Positions 13,089 through 22,997 of a DNA stretch of 37,068 bases are shown here, one piece after another. Source of the stretch: Promethearchaeota archaeon (lineage in GTDB: Archaea; Asgardarchaeota; Lokiarchaeia; Sigyniarchaeales; SOKP01); contig SDNY01000027.1 of assembly GCA_004524535.1 (NCBI GenBank), forward strand, positions 1-37,068. The letters are read 5' to 3'. The notes beneath the pieces were generated by a model. It had not been told where the DNA came from, searched no databases, and saw only the letters and a list, made by a program, of their open reading frames with translations. Numbering within the stretch: position 1 is the stretch's first letter; every line of letters begins with the position of its first letter. The position numbers were made by a program, and so were the translations under genes.

Positions 13089-13172
13089 TGCGGGAAGGGA
13101 GATTTGAACTCCCGAACTCCTACGAGACTGGATTCTGAGTCCAGCGCCTTTACCAAACTTGGCAATTCCCGC
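13089..13172 (-). tRNA. tRNA-Leu (anticodon CAG), intronless, CCA not encoded
   Basis: GCGGGAA/TTCCCGC acceptor stem with discriminator A, D-arm GCCAAGTTTGGTAAAGGC, anticodon arm CTGGA-CTCAGAA-TCCAG, long variable arm CTCGTAGGAG, T-arm GGGAG-TTCAAAT-CTCCC. Confidence 0.96.
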
Positions 13173-14831: not shown

Positions 14832-16976
14832 TCATTTTAATTTCAATCCATTTTTGCAGTGAGGACAGAAGAGAGGTAATTCTTCTTGACAGACTTCTAA
14901 ATCATCGTCATTAAATAATTTTCTCCAGCACACCAAGCTTTCACCTTCCTTTAGCATGTCCCTACCATGATGTTGTGGTATGATTTTCTTTGTTTTACAC
15001 GTTTCACATATCAACAATTGTGCTTCACTTTCCAAATTTTCAATCGGTTTTTCTTTAAATTTTGGCTTGTATCTGAATAAAGTCATGCTATTAAACAATA
15101 CGAGGAGAGAAACTCCCATGTCACCAATTCCAACGGCAAGCCATAACGTCATTAATCCGATAACAGTTAGAACAGCAAACGATACCTTAACTATAATTGA
15201 TGTCCATATGTTTTGTTTTATTTTATTGTTGGTTTTTTTAGAGATATCAATGAAAGTTAATATTTTTTTCAAATCATCTCCCATAATAATTACATCAGCG
15301 GTTTCAAGAGTAACATCCGTTGCTGATGCTCCTATTGCTATGCCCAGATCAGAAATTGCTAAGGCTGGAGCATCATTGATTCCATCTCCGACCATCGCCA
15401 CACCCTTATAATGAGCCTTTAAATCTTCAATTTCTTGTAATTTTTGGTCGGGTAAAAGTTCACCATAAGTGTTAGTTATATCTAAACACTCGCCAATTGT
15501 ATTACAGACAGATTGATTGTCACCAGAGATTAAAACCGAATCAAACCCTCGTTTTTTTAAGCCATAAATAAGAAAAGGAGCGGAAATTCTTAACACATCT
15601 CTTATAGTAATAATTCCTAATAACTTCCCATTATTCCCTAATAGGACTGGGATAGTTCCTGTAATCTCTATATTCTCAAGGTCTTCCATTGGCAATTTAT
15701 AATTTAATTCTTCAAAATATCTTTGACTTCCAACAGTGAATAATTCTCCATTAATTTCCCCTTTAATTCCCTTACCTTTTAATATTTCAAAATTGTCAAC
15801 TGTAAGTAAAGGGACCTTAAGATCTTCTGCTTTTTTAATTATAGCTTTCGCAATTGGATGTTCAGATAATAATTCTAAGCTTGCAGCTAGGCTTAGTATA
15901 TCTTCTTGACTGCCTGAATAAGCAAATATCTCAAAAACTCTTAGTTTTCCTTCCGTTAATGTACCTGTTTTGTCAAATGCAAAAACCTTAATTTCATCAA
16001 TCTTTTCAATAAATTTGTTCCCTTTCACTAAGATACCTTCTCGTGCTAATTTCGTGAGTGCTGAGACATTAGCTAATGGTGTTGATAAAGTCAATGCGCA
16101 TGGACATGACACAACCAATAGAATTAATCCGCGATAGAACCAAGTATTAAAATCTAAGCCAAAAAATAAAGAAGGTATTATCATAACCGCTAACGCAGCA
16201 AATAAAATCATAGGAGTGTAATATTTTGCGAATTTTTCGATAAATTTTTCATTCCCGCTTTTATTTTGTTGGGCAATTTTTATACTTTCTGCTATTTGAG
16301 CCACTATTGTGTTTGAACTTTCTCTTAATACTTCAATTTCAATGAAACTATCAGAATTCATGCTAGCAGCAAAGATTTCATCACCCTTTTGTTTAAACAC
16401 GGGAACTGATTCTCCGGTTATTGCACTTTCGTCAAAATAAGATTCTCCCTTAACAATTACACCATCTAAGGGGGCTTTCATTCCTGGTCTAATCCCGATT
16501 ATATCCCCTGTTTTAACTTCCTCGGCAGGTACAGGAGTATATCCTTCATCAGTCTTCAATAATGCATCATTAGGAGTTAATTCAAGCAACTCTTTTATAG
16601 CATTTCTCGATTTCTCGGTTGTTAATTCTTCCAAATGCTCGGCGATCGCATAAAGCAAAATAGCAGTTGCCCCTTCCTGTCCATGTAAAATAAAAAAAGC
16701 TGCCACAGCAGCGAATAACATTAAAATGTTAGCTGTGATTTTTTTATTCACTATGTCATGAAGAGATTCTTTAATAACGCCATAGCTGGAAAATCCAATA
16801 GAGATAATTGCTAATAATTGGCTTAAAAATACTAATTCTGTTGTAAATTCAAGATAAATAGAGATAGCTAAAATAATAGCAGAAGGAATAATGAAAAACC
16901 AAAAAAATCGCTCGAAGAAGCTTTCTTCTTTATCTTCTTCAAATTCAATATCACATATTTCAGAAGAGCAACTAAT
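14832..16976 (-). CDS. P1B-type heavy-metal (Zn/Cd/Pb-type) translocating ATPase
   Basis: TGES, SCPCAL, DKTGTLT, SEHPIA, GDGINDAPAL. The frame stays open 75 codons upstream of the ORF-track GTG, to ATT 16976, adding two TM helices. Confidence 0.92.
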   Translation of the reverse strand: MSCSSEICDIEFEEDKEESFFERFFWFFIIPSAIILAISIYLEFTTELVFLSQLLAIISIGFSSYGVIKESLHDIVNKKITANILMLFAAVAAFFILHGQEGATAILLYAIAEHLEELTTEKSRNAIKELLELTPNDALLKTDEGYTPVPAEEVKTGDIIGIRPGMKAPLDGVIVKGESYFDESAITGESVPVFKQKGDEIFAASMNSDSFIEIEVLRESSNTIVAQIAESIKIAQQNKSGNEKFIEKFAKYYTPMILFAALAVMIIPSLFFGLDFNTWFYRGLILLVVSCPCALTLSTPLANVSALTKLAREGILVKGNKFIEKIDEIKVFAFDKTGTLTEGKLRVFEIFAYSGSQEDILSLAASLELLSEHPIAKAIIKKAEDLKVPLLTVDNFEILKGKGIKGEINGELFTVGSQRYFEELNYKLPMEDLENIEITGTIPVLLGNNGKLLGIITIRDVLRISAPFLIYGLKKRGFDSVLISGDNQSVCNTIGECLDITNTYGELLPDQKLQEIEDLKAHYKGVAMVGDGINDAPALAISDLGIAIGASATDVTLETADVIIMGDDLKKILTFIDISKKTNNKIKQNIWTSIIVKVSFAVLTVIGLMTLWLAVGIGDMGVSLLVLFNSMTLFRYKPKFKEKPIENLESEAQLLICETCKTKKIIPQHHGRDMLKEGESLVCWRKLFNDDDLEVCQEELPLFCPHCKNGLKLK

Positions 16977-17123
16977 TCAATATCACCAATTAATAAATAC
17001 GAAAGAAATCATAAATAATTGATTTTTATATTGTATAAAAAAACACTACAACAAAATTTCCTTTTAATCGGTTATTATAATTTTCTTTTATGTGTTATAA
17101 AAAGTGTGATCTTGTTGTGGTGA

Positions 17124-17570
17124 TTACTTCTTATTTTGATTTGATAATTGATCTTTAAATTTGGAAAAAATCTGTTTTTTGAAAAGATTGAAATCACTCA
17201 GATTTTCTTGGAGAATCTCATAAATTATTTCATTATTGATTTCCATATATAAATGACCTCTTAGATTACGAAATTTTGTCATTTTAATGAGTTTTTCTTT
17301 TAATTCATCATCAATTATATCTATTTTTGCTAAATCAATAAAGATCTCACTGTATGTTTCAGGCTTTCCATTTTTATTATTTGAGAGAATATGGTTCCCA
17401 ATATCAATACATATATTTATACATGTTTCTAAAGCCCGTTGAGCACTTAAATAAAAGAGATAATTGGAAAGAAAATCATCTTTAGATTTTTTCTTTAATT
17501 CTTCTAAGATTTCAATTAATTCATCTATTTTTTTGAATCTATTCAAAATGATATTAGGATCAATAATCAT
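17124..17570 (-). CDS. HepT-like HEPN ribonuclease toxin (DUF86)
   Basis: RALETCINICIDI, KPETYSEIF, FRNLRGHLY (Rx4HxY). Confidence 0.9.
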   Translation of the reverse strand: MIIDPNIILNRFKKIDELIEILEELKKKSKDDFLSNYLFYLSAQRALETCINICIDIGNHILSNNKNGKPETYSEIFIDLAKIDIIDDELKEKLIKMTKFRNLRGHLYMEINNEIIYEILQENLSDFNLFKKQIFSKFKDQLSNQNKK

Positions 17571-18003
17571 CCTCTAATACCTCTTTTATTGAAATTTCAT
17601 CGTACATATCAAGCATCGGTTTAATTTCTTGATACATATATAATACTTTTAACTCAAATTCATGAGTAATTGTTCTATTCTTTTGAAATATAATTCTACC
17701 ATTCTTTATGACATGAAATAAAAATCGAGGTGTGGTTTTGTTAATTATCCTTAAATCAACATTAATCTTGTAGTTAAAATGACTTTCAATCTTTAGACTT
17801 AAATCAGCAAAATATAAGTGAGGTGGTTTAAAATCTTCTTTTAAAATAATACCAATATCAATATCGCTATATTCTGTTTGAGTCCCTTTAGCATAGGAAC
17901 CATATAAATATGCTATTTGAATTTCTTCATGGTTTTTAAATAAAGTTTCAATAACACGTTCTAATTCTTTTATTTGTACCATTTGGTATTTAATTCTCTT
18001 CAT
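17560..18003 (-). CDS. MntA-like nucleotidyltransferase antitoxin
   Basis: AYLYGSYAKG....SDIDIGI, VDLRII. Overlaps the HepT-like gene. Confidence 0.9.
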   Translation of the reverse strand: MKRIKYQMVQIKELERVIETLFKNHEEIQIAYLYGSYAKGTQTEYSDIDIGIILKEDFKPPHLYFADLSLKIESHFNYKINVDLRIINKTTPRFLFHVIKNGRIIFQKNRTITHEFELKVLYMYQEIKPMLDMYDEISIKEVLEDDY

Positions 18004-18069
18004 ATAATATAAAGAAGAGTCTTACATATTTAAATCCGAGCTGTATGGGAGATATATTGATTTTTTTTC

Positions 18070-18180
18070 TTATTTGATAACATATGCTAGTTTTTGTCCT
18101 TCTTCTTCAAGATTCAATTCCCTTCGGATGGCATTTCTAACCAAATACCCTCCAATATGGAGAATAGAATCTTTTAGAAT
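18070..18180 (-). pseudogene. Orphan diverged copy of the DUF166 gene 3' end
   Basis: Translates ILKDSILHIGGYLVRNAIRRELNLEEEGQKLAYVIK*, versus MLKDSILHVGGYLVRNAIRRELGLEEQIGERLTYIIK* at the end of 20233..21132. No start; an in-frame TAA lies at 18189-18187. Confidence 0.9.
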
Positions 18181-18392
18181 TGTAGATTAACAATGACCTA
18201 AGTATAGTCTTGAATTTTTTATTGAAATTATTAAATTGGTAGAGAATCTACATTTAAATTTAAGATTTTTTAAATTTAAATTATAGAATTTTTAGAATGT
18301 TTAAATAAAAACGAATTCATCATATTGTAGGAAAAAATTTCTTTATAAATCAATTGAAAAACTTGAGTTCGTAAAAAACAAACATAATTAAA

Positions 18393-20225
18393 ATGTCAGA
18401 AAAACGGAAATGGATTGGAAAATGTCGTGTTGAAGAAGGATTAGATGATGAACCTGTTGTTAAGGATTTTATTAACAATTATTGCGATGATGTTGAGGTT
18501 ATTAGAAAAAATAATAGACAAGAATTAGAGATGACAAAATTTAAACCTATAACTTTTTCTAAAGCAGTAATTGAATATATTAAAAAGAGAATTAGAGTAT
18601 CGAATAACGAATTCGATAAATATCTTGATTACATGAAAGATCATGGTATAAACAATGATAAACTCCTTAAAATAATATTTTCCGAAAAGAATTTAGATGA
18701 ACTTCTGAGAAAAGCTAATATCAAAAGTGGTAAACAAAATCGACTTCAAGCAAAAAGATGTATGACAGTAATTTCCCTTGCACTTCTTAAATGTTCTAAT
18801 TATAATGACCTTCGAAATTCTTTACATGCATTAACTGGTTTATCTAATAGATATATTTATGATGTAATTAAAAAATGTATTCCCATTTTGAATAGTATAA
18901 ATCCTAGCGTAAAAATTAATAGATGGCTACCTCAAAAACCATTTGAATACAATCTCATATTAATTAATAAAATGATAAAAAAAAGAGGTTGGAAATTATT
19001 ATTTCCCAAAACTCAAGAAGAATTTGATAAGTTAAGAAAAAAACATAATCGTGAACCAGCTAGAATTCCCCTATATGTAGAATGCGATAGAGATCATAAA
19101 TTTTCTACTAATGCTTTCAATTTACAGCGAAGGGAAAAAGGTTGTAGAAAATGTGCAGATGATGATAAAATTAAATATAATATGGATACAATAAAAAAAT
19201 TGGTTAATCAGAAAGATTGGATTTTGAAATATCCTAAAAATCAAGAGCAACTTGATTTACTTGTAGAAAAACTCAATTGTGCTCCAAATGCAGCTCCTCT
19301 AAGTATCGAGTGTAGCTTAGGTCACCCAATTTTAACAAAAGCACATAGATTAAACCAAAAATTATTAAAGGATACAGAAGGCTGTTTAAAGTGTAGTCAT
19401 ATTAAAAAAAGGAAATATAATATAAATGTAGTGAATAAAATGATTAGAGATAGAGGTGCTATTCTTATTTATCCAAAAACTCAAGAACATTATAATGCTT
19501 TAAAAAAATCTCATCAGTGTAAACCCTTTAAAGTTCCTCTTAAAATAGAATGTATAAGAGGTCATATTTTTAATAGTAATGCTTCTTTAATACAACAGAA
19601 CCATTGGTGTCCTTATTGCAAACAAATTAAATCTGCTATAGGTAGACTTACTCATATCATTTTTGAATATCTTACTATTAAATATCTCCTATTAAAAGGT
19701 TGTCAAGCTGATTTCGAACAACAGATAAATCTTAATACAAAACATCAGGTTGATATTCTAGTAAAAAGAGATAGGAATTTTATGAAACATATTGAAAAAT
19801 TTCAATCTATTATTTCGATTCCTAATATTATTAGAGAAATAGCGATTGATTTTACTTTTTCTCTTGAAAAAAAGTTCATTTTATCAAAGTTTTATAAAAA
19901 TTATCAAAATAAAAATAGGTTTCTAATTGTTGTGTTGCTAGATGGAGATATTAAAAAATGTAGTGTAGAACAAATTATTCAATTTTCTTCTAATATTAAT
20001 TTTAAAAAATATATCAAAATATTATCTTTTAATGAGTTCCTCGAATTTTTATGTCTATTACAAAGAATAATCGATTGGAGATTAATTTCCAAAGACGAGA
20101 AGGGAATACTTTCGGAATTTAATAATATTTATAACCTCGCCATTGATGCTATTGATTCAGAAGAAGAGCTCAAAAAATTAATTAAAATTGGTGAAAAATT
20201 TAAAAATAAAATTGGGAATTTGTAA
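18393..20225 (+). CDS. Protein with three Zn-binding repeats and a putative C-terminal PD-(D/E)XK-like nuclease domain
   Basis: Three ~75-80 aa repeats YN...PK(T/N)QE...PL.(V/I)EC..(D/G)H...CxxC, then HIIFE...QVDILVKR...IAIDFT. Nuclease assignment is inference. Confidence 0.6.
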   Translation: MSEKRKWIGKCRVEEGLDDEPVVKDFINNYCDDVEVIRKNNRQELEMTKFKPITFSKAVIEYIKKRIRVSNNEFDKYLDYMKDHGINNDKLLKIIFSEKNLDELLRKANIKSGKQNRLQAKRCMTVISLALLKCSNYNDLRNSLHALTGLSNRYIYDVIKKCIPILNSINPSVKINRWLPQKPFEYNLILINKMIKKRGWKLLFPKTQEEFDKLRKKHNREPARIPLYVECDRDHKFSTNAFNLQRREKGCRKCADDDKIKYNMDTIKKLVNQKDWILKYPKNQEQLDLLVEKLNCAPNAAPLSIECSLGHPILTKAHRLNQKLLKDTEGCLKCSHIKKRKYNINVVNKMIRDRGAILIYPKTQEHYNALKKSHQCKPFKVPLKIECIRGHIFNSNASLIQQNHWCPYCKQIKSAIGRLTHIIFEYLTIKYLLLKGCQADFEQQINLNTKHQVDILVKRDRNFMKHIEKFQSIISIPNIIREIAIDFTFSLEKKFILSKFYKNYQNKNRFLIVVLLDGDIKKCSVEQIIQFSSNINFKKYIKILSFNEFLEFLCLLQRIIDWRLISKDEKGILSEFNNIYNLAIDAIDSEEELKKLIKIGEKFKNKIGNL

Positions 20226-20232
20226 ATATTAT

Positions 20233-21132
20233 TTATTTTATAATATATGTTAGTCTCTCACCTATTTGCTCTTCCAATCCAAGTTCTCTTCTTATTGCAT
20301 TTCTCACTAAATAACCTCCTACATGGAGTATTGAGTCTTTTAGCATACTGTCAGCCTGCATGCTAGCATTACAAGGATAAGCGTGATGTGCTTTACTAAT
20401 TTTTTCATTAAGAGATAAATCACCATTTTCGATGTATTTTGCTCTTAACTGTTGTAATATGTAATATGTAGAACCACATGGAGCACTTTGAAGAACACAT
20501 GCGTCTACAATTGATTTTCCATCCTTACTTAATAAAAATGATACTATGGGTACTCCAATTTGAAAATGTTCTATAAAGTCATGAATATAATCATGCTTAT
20601 TAGTGAGGTGGAATCCAATTTTATTATATTCGTTATAATCTTTACTCAATGAACAAAATGGTTTTGGAAATGCCGCTTGAATACCATATTTTTCAAAATC
20701 TTCAAGCACTTGTACTTGCAATCCCGCAGGAACCCATTTAGGATCTTCTATAGGAACTATTACCGCTTTTACTCCTTTGTCTTTTAAATAAAAGGGCAGT
20801 TCTGCTAATAAATCTGGATGAATTCCTACAACTATTAAAAAATCGACAGGTGGCAAATTTTTAGGTAAATATTTTTCTGAATCTTCTACAAAATCAGGAA
20901 GACCTTCACCAATTTTCTCATAAAAATAAATTGAGCTTGCATAACCTTTTAAATTTTCGCGACATTTATCGCATTTAATATTCATTTCCAAATCTTCACA
21001 TGCTTTACAAAAATCCTCAGAATTTATCAAATTTCCTACAAATTTCGCGGTTAGCATCTCGGTATCTGGATCTACTCCATACAAAAACCCTAAAGTGTAT
21101 TTTTTATTATTTTTACTCATCACGGGATACAT
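20233..21132 (-). CDS. DUF166 family protein
   Basis: LPPVDFLIVVGIHPDL, FPKPFCSL, SAPCGST, HHAYPCNASM. Confidence 0.82.
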   Translation of the reverse strand: MYPVMSKNNKKYTLGFLYGVDPDTEMLTAKFVGNLINSEDFCKACEDLEMNIKCDKCRENLKGYASSIYFYEKIGEGLPDFVEDSEKYLPKNLPPVDFLIVVGIHPDLLAELPFYLKDKGVKAVIVPIEDPKWVPAGLQVQVLEDFEKYGIQAAFPKPFCSLSKDYNEYNKIGFHLTNKHDYIHDFIEHFQIGVPIVSFLLSKDGKSIVDACVLQSAPCGSTYYILQQLRAKYIENGDLSLNEKISKAHHAYPCNASMQADSMLKDSILHVGGYLVRNAIRRELGLEEQIGERLTYIIK

Positions 21133-21305
21133 AAATTATATGTTTTTATTTGTTTTTTTAATAATTAATAAACCATATAATTTTTTAGTAGAACATGTTC
21201 AAAGAAAGATATTCTATTTCAAAAATTAGATGCTTATAAAAGAAGAAATTGTTTTTATATATGACAATTAAAAATTTAAATTAAAATTCACGAGATACGA
21301 TTGTT

Positions 21306-22997
21306 TTGAGTGAAAAGAGTGTTGGCTTTAATTCTGACGAAAAGCTTGAAGAAATAAGTAGATTTTATAGACATAAACTCCCTTTTACTTTTAAATCTTT
21401 TATGAAAGATATAGAGATTACAAAAAAGGAGTTCTTTCTGCTGTTTTTAATTTTTAATTCGTTGGTTTTTTTGGGTCTTTATCAATTTGGAATAATAATT
21501 GGAATGCCTATTGAACATGAGAACCCTCATTTAAGAGAATTGAATTTATTTAAAGCAGTATCTATATTCAGTGGTTTTATAATAGGATTTTTACTTTCGA
21601 TATATTTTATTGATAAAATAAAGAAACCTATAAGTTTCATCAAAAGTGTTATAGTGACCTCATTAATATTAATTTTTATACAAATTCCTTTAATTTTACT
21701 TAAAATGGAAATGCTCTTGAATATCTTTTACTTTACGAATATTCTAATTCTAATTATTGCTATTATGACAACTGGTAAAATATTTCTTATTAAAACTAGT
21801 ATCTTGGAAAGAGGTAGGATAATGTCTTATTTATTATTCTTTACAATTCTATGTATCGCTATTGTTTTGGGTTCAGCACTTATCAATATCTTGATTATTA
21901 TTCCAATTGTTTTCGTAGTTCTTACAATTATTTTACTTAAGATAAATAAAGATAAATATAATATTAAGTTCCAAACATCTATAATTGAAGGGGAAAAGAA
22001 AAGTTTACTGAAAAGTTTTCAGCTCGATTTAATAAAATATTATCTCTTTTTTTTCTGTTTTAGTTTTACGGGTGGTCTTGCGTTCCCACTTCAAGATTCA
22101 ATTCAATTCGGCGTTAATGCGCTGGCAGGGAATACAGTCTTGATCTTTTCACTTGTTATAATTTATGCAATTATTATTGTGATTTTAATTGGTCTTTTAT
22201 TTGATTATGCCGGTAGAATTTTTCCACTAAATTATATTATTTTAGCAATAGCATTGGCCACGTACATACACATCTTTAGAGATAGGTATTATGATTTCCC
22301 TCTTGCGATTGTATTTAGCGCTTATATCGCTGCTCTTATGTGCGTTCCTCTCCTAATCGGAGACACAATTACGCGGGAAAATTTTGGAAGTTCATTATCC
22401 ATTTCTTATTTTATCATTATCATAGGGATGATTATTGGTTTAAGTTTTAATATGTTTATAACAGAATCATTAGAATCTAGTTCTTTTAAAGAAATTTTTC
22501 TAATGGGGACAATATTTATGTTTTGTATCATCTGTTTGTTGTTTTTAGTATATATGCGTGAGACTTTACCTCGGAAAGAGCAGGCGTGGAAAAATTTTTT
22601 ACATCATCTCTACATTATTCACGATTCTGGAATTTTACTTTACGAATATGCTTTTATAAAAGAAAAACAGACGGAGGGGAGTAGCGTTGATTCTGATTTG
22701 AGGGCAGGAGGTATAATTGGCGTAAGATCTATTTTGAAAGAAATAGTACAAGGAGAAGAAGAAGTTAAAACGATTGATAGTGGGGATAGGGTTCTTATGA
22801 TTAACCATTCTAATCAAGTTATTTTTGCTCTTATAATAAAAGAGGAATTAATTGTATTAAGAAAAAAAATGGAGGCTTTAATCGAAGATTTTAATAAGGA
22901 ATTTGGAGAACTAATTAATGAGGTTAGTTCAATTGGCGCCGCTATACACAAATTTAAACCAACTGAACATATTGTTTTGAAATATTTTGGAAATTAA
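21306..22997 (+). CDS. MFS-like 12-TM protein fused to a C-terminal longin-like domain
   Basis: About 12 hydrophobic segments with MFS-like loops (YFIDKIKK, ERGR, GLLFDYAGR, MRETLP), then HLYIIHDSGILLYEYAF...GGIIGVRSILKEI...FALIIKEEL..LRKKME. Confidence 0.72.
   Translation: MSEKSVGFNSDEKLEEISRFYRHKLPFTFKSFMKDIEITKKEFFLLFLIFNSLVFLGLYQFGIIIGMPIEHENPHLRELNLFKAVSIFSGFIIGFLLSIYFIDKIKKPISFIKSVIVTSLILIFIQIPLILLKMEMLLNIFYFTNILILIIAIMTTGKIFLIKTSILERGRIMSYLLFFTILCIAIVLGSALINILIIIPIVFVVLTIILLKINKDKYNIKFQTSIIEGEKKSLLKSFQLDLIKYYLFFFCFSFTGGLAFPLQDSIQFGVNALAGNTVLIFSLVIIYAIIIVILIGLLFDYAGRIFPLNYIILAIALATYIHIFRDRYYDFPLAIVFSAYIAALMCVPLLIGDTITRENFGSSLSISYFIIIIGMIIGLSFNMFITESLESSSFKEIFLMGTIFMFCIICLLFLVYMRETLPRKEQAWKNFLHHLYIIHDSGILLYEYAFIKEKQTEGSSVDSDLRAGGIIGVRSILKEIVQGEEEVKTIDSGDRVLMINHSNQVIFALIIKEELIVLRKKMEALIEDFNKEFGELINEVSSIGAAIHKFKPTEHIVLKYFGN

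Follow-up and report, generated by a model that had tools for sequence, protein, structure and literature searches.

In Torulaspora and Lachancea yeasts, the WHO elements of the aldolase gene FBA1 are units of a nuclease gene and a 3' gene end that confers resistance; the displaced 3' fragment is left at the site, and the two sides of the cut differ in identity (85% versus 99%) and yield discordant trees, according to Coughlan et al. 2020 (PMC7282813). Osborne et al. (2026, bioRxiv 10.64898/2026.08.13.744650) class them as a third category of homing element. The mORF gene hybrids of fungal mitochondria (atp6 in Allomyces macrogynus; atp6, atp9, cox2 and nad3 in Glomus) likewise combine an inserted foreign C-terminus, an endonuclease open reading frame (ORF) and a displaced native C-terminus (PMC3630166). 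Here we describe the same layout in a 37,068-nucleotide (nt) stretch of DNA from a Promethearchaeota archaeon, analysed as a whole and called the window below (contig C78 of a 198-contig, 30% G+C metagenome-assembled genome with 4.4% contamination). A DUF166 gene in this window takes its end from a 2.18-kilobase (kb) insert at 18183-20365, which also carries a gene for a 610-amino-acid (aa) putative nuclease, and the apparently native end of the gene lies beyond that nuclease gene. We consider it probable that the insert is a splicing-independent, end-replacing homing element comparable to the yeast WHO elements and the fungal mORFs.

The features of the locus, read against the closest relative (genome G008) and a further relative (G002), are as follows:

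20233-21132, minus strand: DUF166 gene, 299 aa (Pfam PF02593, E 1.9e-47)
18070..18182, minus strand: orphan DUF166 tail, read as native; codons ~262-299 and TAA stop, one codon deleted; nearest relative G008
18183..18392, plus strand: non-coding right end of the element, 5' of the nuclease gene; absent from G008 and from the empty-site contigs; probable promoter region
18393..20225, plus strand: putative site-specific endonuclease gene, 610 aa, from the ORF list; convergent with DUF166; assigned by predicted fold
20226..20232, no strand: 7-nt spacer at two convergent stop codons, read from the sequence
20233..20365, minus strand: putative element-borne DUF166 replacement tail, codons 256-299 and stop; divergent from G008 and G002
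20366..20492, minus strand: tract in DUF166 that probably stems from co-conversion with a G002-like donor; 122/127 nt identical to G002
20493-20532, minus strand: ambiguous transition in DUF166 between the G002-like tract and the G008-like body
20533..21132, minus strand: native 5' body of DUF166; 568/600 nt identical to G008
17109..18069, minus strand: separate 961-nt insertion outside the element, an MNT/HepT pair; absent in G008

The orphan copy (18070-18186, minus strand) holds the last 38 codons of DUF166 in frame and with its own TAA stop. A whole-genome search matched it (18073-18186, minus strand) to residues 261-299 of the live gene with 74% identity (E 7.5e-11), and a tblastx comparison of the two flanks of the 610-aa gene recovered the same duplicated tail (E 9e-12). 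Both searches bear out an earlier note on this DNA, which had placed the DUF166 3' end twice in the same orientation, with the live copy at 20233-20346. The same note had described the copies as differing mostly synonymously, with one codon indel. The indel is present, and among the 36 codons aligned from I262, 13 are identical, 14 differ only synonymously and 9 change the amino acid, so the description holds roughly rather than strictly. Besides the 610-aa gene, which ends 7 nt from the DUF166 stop as the note had said, the interval between the copies contains only antisense ORFs of 42 aa. The ORF list and Pfam gave no integrase and no other ORF of at least 60 aa in 18183-20365, in agreement with the proposal of an integrase-free element. 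Near 18300-18310, 5' of the nuclease gene, stands a TTTAAATA-like box, and a short block around it is common to the upstream region of an orthologue in another metagenome contig (L099, see below); the region 18183-18392 probably holds the promoter of the nuclease gene. A promoter scan of the window was uninformative, its models being bacterial and the host an archaeon, and an Rfam scan of the window matched only a tRNA (13089-13172, minus strand).

We then aligned the DUF166 genes of 17 relatives by codon, taking the pair G008-G002 as a control. The identity within this control pair is uniform over the whole gene (79-81%), and the live gene of the window is a mosaic. Over alignment columns 0-600 (window 21132-20533), it is identical to G008 at 568/600 positions (94.7%) versus 79.7% for G002, with 79.0% between the two relatives. 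Over columns 640-779 (window 20492-20366) the affinities are exchanged, with 79.5% to G008 versus 122/127 (96.1%) to G002 and 80.3% for the control. From column 779 to the end (window 20365-20233) the live gene falls to 68.5% against G008 and 67.7% against G002, while these two still share 80.8%. The change at column 779 (position 20365) is abrupt, and none of the 17 relatives exceeds 74% identity to the live tail. The orphan, in turn, is closest to G008 (94/109 nt, 86.2%), followed by G002 (80.7%) and the live tail (71.6%). At the protein level the orphan ends in a G008-like manner (...ELNLEE-EGQKLAYVIK, compared with ...ELNLEEEEGQKLAYVIK in G008) and the live gene ends in ...ELGLEEQIGERLTYIIK. 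Because the orphan matches the G008 tail and the live tail matches no relative well, the alignment identifies the orphan as the original gene end and the live end as imported. That a recoded gene end had been swapped in was suggested in the earlier note; the tail, 68% identical to both G008 and G002, is most strongly respelled exactly at the junction, where about 10 of 21 nt differ. The 127-nt tract that adjoins the junction, with its 96.1% identity to G002 versus 79.5% to G008, is compatible with co-conversion but no proof of it. It is very likely that a foreign gene end came in with the 2.18-kb insert, which displaced the native end.

Empty sites are found in several relatives. In G008, the homologue of window position 17108 is joined straight to the homologue of 20221 (blastn, 93.6% and 89.3% identity), and the 610-aa protein has no match in that genome. 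Logan contigs from four other metagenome runs (three from other studies and one of the source study), compared with 16500-21500 at a likeness of at least 85%, contain joints from 18176, 18177 or 18182 to 20365 or 20366 that skip 2182-2188 nt in all four runs. The longer-sided joints have 78 letters (runs X2 and X4) or 32 letters (X3) on the short side; the others, with only 20-22 letters there, are weak. Between the joint sides lie 16-22 letters that read TCA ATG GAC CAA GAT... on the minus strand, which is the native sequence S-M-D-Q-D. Homology of the orphan to native alleles stops at 18182/18183, and codons 256-261, some 16 nt of native sequence, are lacking between the two junctions of the window. 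These contigs belong to related organisms and not to the strain of the window, as suits a search for empty sites. Natural, uninterrupted DUF166 genes, as represented by G008 and these contigs, carry the orphan-type tail. Further joints in X4 and X5 run from 17108 to 18070, skip 961 nt and have 12-13 other letters in between. Since the empty-site joints skip each segment separately, the MNT/HepT pair (17109-18069) and the nuclease element (18183-20365) are two separate insertions. In the four runs the nuclease gene has a coverage near zero, which, for contigs, is not read as absence. As a side observation, in many assemblies a contig ends within DUF166 (G005, G065, G102, G118, G125, G137, G138 and G148), residues 254, 258 and 256 being examples; these breaks fit strain-level variation at the site and may also be an effect of assembly.

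The element recurs at the same site in contigs of other origin. When JGI and other metagenome contigs were scanned with a five-sequence alignment of the closest homologues, four loci were found; the same scan with the single protein gave no match, and an eight-sequence alignment was too divergent to use. One locus (L098, 5754 nt) encodes a 608-aa orthologue (60% identical) followed by a 7-nt spacer, a convergent 294-aa DUF166 gene and a RIO-like kinase gene, a neighbour it has in common with the window. No orphan was detectable in L098 upstream of the orthologue, where a metallophosphoesterase gene is found. Another locus (L099, 2898 nt) consists of the start of a P-type ATPase gene, an orphan DUF166 tail, an HNH_2 gene and an orthologue (56% identical) that runs off the contig. 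Its orphan (409-534) is 89% identical in protein to that of the window, and both orphans start at the same codon, I262/L263. The HNH_2 gene (692-1378) encodes 228 aa (Pfam E 1.3e-4), and in L099 two different nuclease genes are accordingly stacked downstream of DUF166. Together with the empty site in G008 and in the contigs of the four runs, these orthologues reveal a presence/absence polymorphism at one fixed DUF166 site.

In both live genes linked to the element (window and L098), Ser256 is spelled AGC and the protein reads x-Ala-Asp; in the relatives this serine is TCN in 16/17, and 14/17 read Asp-Gln. Over the first 54 nt past the junction, the window and L098 are mutually nearest (81.5%), with G011 coming next (74-76%), although their DUF166 bodies are not mutually nearest. 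Because the junction signature is common to both while the bodies are not each other's nearest, the junction-proximal tail appears to travel with the nuclease gene. G011 (L023, G011:C220) is the sole relative with a partly element-like spelling, an AGT serine and Asp-Ala-Asp at codons 256-259, and has a cupin-like gene downstream. The earlier note had asked whether homologues elsewhere are also flanked by duplicated gene ends. At the DUF166 site, L098 and L099 carry orthologues and L099 an orphan; among distant paralogues, none of the 12 testable loci was convincing.

The 610-aa protein has an N-terminal helical domain (~42-195), three C-x3-H...C-x2-C zinc modules (~205-410) and a C-terminal PD-(D/E)XK-like domain (405-610). 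The modules (C231/H235/C251/C254, C307/H311/C331/C334 and C387/H391/C406/C409), already noticed as repeats from the sequence, are invariant in the five closest homologues. Neither Pfam (at E 0.1 or better) nor PADLOC gave a match to the protein, and phrog_559, annotated as HNH endonuclease, matches the zinc-module region (207-431, E 3.7e-7). The C-x3-H...C-x2-C pattern is conserved; DUF4379 (PF14311) has no match in the 610-aa protein. A word-indexed search of 5.8 billion sequences returned seven other matching proteins, four with 54-69% identity and three with 30-32%; the closest (P0003) is 69% identical and another (P0006) 54%, and two homologues are named Promethearchaeota in NCBI. From 11 sequences of this genome and related ones, a profile was made of the C-terminal 206 residues; it found 288 cluster representatives at E <=1e-3 among 1.84 billion proteins, in which the domain is almost always C-terminal and preceded by variable N-terminal parts. 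When 78 proteins with this domain were compared with Pfam, no model covered it in any of them; elsewhere in these proteins were DUF4379 treble-clef zinc fingers (16/78), TFIIB repeats (4) and DUF723 (3).

The AlphaFold2 model of residues 405-610 (pLDDT 84.6, pTM 0.85) contains helix 3-30, strands 35-42 and 47-54, helix 57-64, strand 78-84, helix 89-97 and strand 105-111. The modelled core, alpha-beta-beta-(alpha)-beta-alpha-beta, follows the canonical order with a short additional helix separating strands 2 and 3, and the domain models as a PD-(D/E)XK (restriction endonuclease-like) core fold. A VIA-align run against 48,161 chains placed AF1548 first (Z 7.5, 133 residues aligned, root-mean-square deviation 3.9), followed by Can2 (7.2), BglII (6.2), VC1899 (6.1), McrC (6.0) and EcoRII (5.7), with further matches to BsaWI, BspD6I, R2 endonuclease, NucA and PspGI. 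Most of the top 50 matches, and all those with a named function among the top ten, are PD-(D/E)XK-fold nucleases; AF1548 and VC1899 were deposited as proteins of unknown function. The best Foldseek matches were Ecl18kI, NgoMIV, MspJI and BspD6I (best E 7e-3). The PD-(D/E)XK-like tail suspected from the sequence is thus supported by a model whose structural matches are nearly all restriction-type nucleases. At seven positions (H421, E425, E442, D454, D486, K499 and Y504) conservation reaches at least 90% both in the 78 proteins and in 109 family members. In the model, D454 falls on strand 2 and D486 on strand 3, the strands that bear the PD and (D/E)xK acids, and the conserved Lys499 on the following helix may substitute for the canonical lysine. 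The N-terminal domain (42-195, pLDDT 87.8) gave a best Foldseek E of 0.56 and a best VIA Z of 4.6, and a TFIIB-like cyclin repeat, considered for this domain, is unsupported by these scores. A profile of the whole protein matched only bL31 in the PDB, by chance. A 660-aa paralogue in the same genome (G000:C111:5952-7931; 34% identical) stops 232 nt short of a contig end.

Taken as homing, the locus would work as follows. The element would consist of a promoter region, the gene of the site-specific nuclease, the 7-nt spacer and its own copy of DUF166 codons 256-299. The nuclease would cut element-free DUF166 alleles near codons 256-262, in the conserved stretch N-A-S-M-D-Q-D-S-I, and an element-bearing copy would serve as the template for repair of the break. 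Pairing of the 5' side would take place inside the DUF166 body and leave a co-conversion tract. The recipient would acquire the respelled, presumably uncuttable tail together with the nuclease gene, and its native tail would be displaced downstream as a dead fragment. Because DUF166 would remain intact throughout, no splicing would be needed. Cleavage, the target site, the resistance of the new end and the passage of DNA between cells are the parts of this scheme that we infer; it is likely that the nuclease drives the insertion.

As far as the cited accounts describe the WHO elements, the likeness is extensive. In both cases an essential or conserved gene is directly followed by a gene for a nuclease with zinc-binding modules, and at each integration the 3' end of this host gene gives way to an element-borne version; the old end becomes a fragment farther downstream, the host gene has 5' and 3' parts of discordant ancestry, no splicing is involved, and nuclease genes can stack (two in L099). 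Within the same limits, the differences are the host (an archaeon versus diploid yeast in meiosis), the nuclease (a predicted PD-(D/E)XK-like domain versus a LAGLIDADG, intein-derived one), the convergent orientation of the element gene and the host gene, and the replacement of only 44 codons. Membership in the WHO protein family (HO-like, LAGLIDADG/Hint) was considered and rejected, the protein having no Pfam match at E <=0.1 and a catalytic domain that models as another fold. In the mORFs, as here, the native fragment is nearer to the sister species than the inserted one is (91-98% versus 64-81% there, 86% versus 68% here; PMC3630166). Unlike the locus described here, which involves a chromosomal gene and a nuclease gene on the opposite strand with its own putative promoter, those mORFs are organellar, encode LAGLIDADG or GIY-YIG enzymes and are often in frame with the host gene (PMC3630166).

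Two further comparisons concern the mode of spread and the enzyme. The homing genes of T-even phages sit between genes and are not known to carry a replacement gene end or to leave an orphan. Descriptions of these free-standing genes (Seg, Mob; "intronless homing") do share with our reading of the archaeal element a spread by break repair that is free of integrase and intron and co-converts the flanks (PMC2790892, PMC2988022). The DNA analysed here would match them in these respects and differ in its replacement tail and its orphan. I-Ssp6803I is an example of a PD-(D/E)XK homing endonuclease. PD-(D/E)XK enzymes have been listed among the six recognised families of homing endonuclease (PMC6083498). 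The predicted catalytic fold of the 610-aa protein is likewise restriction-enzyme-like; its architecture differs by the arrays of zinc modules, and its gene is free-standing rather than intron-encoded. Profile searches of Pfam and the PDB revealed no sequence link to any characterised PD-(D/E)XK homing endonuclease. A literature search of partial coverage, which took in papers on Asgard mobile elements, found no end-replacing homing element described in archaea. It seems probable that such spread has so far been described in yeasts and fungal mitochondria, and that the nuclease type found here is new.

A number of observations weigh against homing. The 160 genomes of the class contain no orthologue of more than 42% identity, and matches to the 610-aa protein at E <=1e-20 occur in 16 of these 160 genomes and in none of the 8 other genomes of the genus. 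Only three or four instances of the element are at hand, and both flanks are visible only in the window. Among the 12 testable loci of distant paralogues (23-42% identity; in 8 cases with flanks of 4 kb to either side), there were no convincing duplicated flanks, the sole flank match being 24 aa in L072 (37.5% identity, E 0.006); a further locus had no flank. The structural matches score modestly (best Z 7.5, Foldseek E 7e-3), the profile of the C-terminal domain matched nothing in the PDB at E <=10, and the canonical (D/E)-x-K lysine position is occupied by Thr488, the conserved lysine lying on the following helix. The G002-like tract may come from an unrelated recombination event. Between the ATPase gene and DUF166, each examined relative has a different stretch of DNA, and in G066 (L091, G066:C40, 2838-6252) an intact DUF166 gene is followed by an ABC ATPase and permease and then by an orphan tail (residues 224-299, with degenerate residues), 2.2 kb downstream of the intact gene and with no nuclease at all; the ABC pair is missing from the relatives G067 and G075. 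Because that orphan lies behind a transporter pair, duplication of the DUF166 tail needs no nuclease. The nuclease-free orphan, the variable interval, the paralogues without flank duplication and the lack of closer orthologues in the class keep alive an explanation in which foreign DNA, carrying the 3' part of DUF166 and behind it a nuclease-like or defence gene, came in through recombination that relied on DUF166 homology at one side and was joined illegitimately at the other, inside the native tail, the nuclease having no role in the insertion. The genes found at the variable spot (a GNAT gene in G002, one in G021 whose product by eye resembles TPR proteins, and other genes in G004) and the insertion of the MNT/HepT pair next door would suit such passive entry. 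Against it speak the independent contigs, in which orthologues only 56-60% identical keep the position, the 7-nt spacing (L098) and the break codon of the orphan (L099), and the derived junction signature common to both element-linked tails; moreover, the break in G066 is at another codon (224), and the cargo here is exactly one nuclease-like gene. We regard capture of this kind as unlikely, and homing as the better account of the fixed site.

The remaining explanations fare worse. Integrative elements that restore the 3' end of a target gene are common, and one with an attachment site over the gene end and an integrase since lost would give the same layout of two gene ends; the insert, however, contains neither an integrase nor any ORF of at least 60 aa besides the 610-aa gene, the two copies are just 72% identical with no identical core, the junction lacks some 16 nt of the native sequence, and no related element with a recombinase gene and identical att cores was seen at this site, which makes this origin very improbable. 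A second full-length DUF166 gene once standing downstream, of which the last 38 codons survive, might be suggested by the other DUF166 fragment in the genome (C63, residues 4-91, 74% identity) and by the second, divergent DUF166 copies of the relatives G011, G023 and G075. Such a tandem paralogue that simply decayed, the outcome that the earlier note had set against its own proposal, was checked and discarded as exceedingly unlikely: the orthologous G008 tail is matched by the orphan and not by the live tail, the G008 locus has a single gene, empty-site alleles have the orphan-type tail joined to the gene body, and the live gene has a mosaic structure that breaks sharply. A chimeric contig joined at the repeated tail might be feared in an assembly of 198 contigs with 4.4% contamination, all the more as the contigs of several relatives break within DUF166. 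The tails differ at 28% of positions, so an assembler is unlikely to have been misled; L098 and L099, independent contigs, each show one half of the layout, and the junction at 17108 is spanned without difference by a contig from another run. The probability of an artefact is therefore minimal.

Should the nuclease be active, homing by end replacement, defined in yeast as a third category next to introns and inteins, would also operate in archaea near the eukaryotic stem, and homing endonucleases would gain a new catalytic family. A concrete target of ~20-30 base pairs around DUF166 codons 256-262 would be at hand. The co-conversion tract, coming from another species-level lineage, would then directly record that Asgard lineages exchange DNA and repair breaks by homology, processes of which little is known. 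Homing would also account for the discordant evolution of the DUF166 ends and for the assembly breaks there. A wider possibility, to which we lean less than to homing at this locus and which we offer tentatively, is that a previously undescribed family of homing endonucleases, with a PD-(D/E)XK-like domain, zinc modules and variable heads, drives WHO-like, splicing-free homing in Asgard archaea, with DUF166 as an arms-race hotspot hit at its ends by several nuclease genes of apparently different types. On that view, the PD-(D/E)XK-like gene of the window and the HNH gene of L099 would be invaders of the DUF166 3' end and a 664-aa ORF in G020 one of the 5' end. If it were true, DNA exchange between cells and break repair would be frequent between diverged Lokiarchaeal lineages.

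The MNT/HepT insertion encodes a HepT-like RNase (17124-17570, Pfam E 4e-26) and an MNT nucleotidyltransferase (17560-18003, Polbeta E 8e-22). This toxin-antitoxin-like pair starts right after the stop of the orphan, in place of a 12-13-nt spacer; absent in G008 and skipped by the X4 and X5 contigs, it is ~97-99% identical in other runs. In the interval between the ATPase gene and DUF166 (L060, L061 and L063 in G002, G004 and G021), G002 has a GNAT acetyltransferase gene and G004 a 315-aa and a 363-aa membrane protein. The 613-aa gene of G021, at the same position as the nuclease gene, was examined as a candidate and proved to encode an unrelated helical-repeat protein, the one judged TPR-like by eye.

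Other DUF166 fragments were also seen. The C63 fragment in the same genome (G000:C63:10497-10763; L007 1504-1785) is followed by a FkbM-type methyltransferase ORF that runs off the contig, and the 11 residues TIDLTYYPKCS are repeated at the joint. G020 presents a mirror image at the 5' end (L075, G020:C243, 648-4785). There, the 664-aa Cys/His-rich ORF, which has no Pfam or PHROG match and HNH-like motifs by eye, stands between an orphan 133-aa 5' fragment, broken after ...KAVIVPI, and a full-length DUF166 gene.

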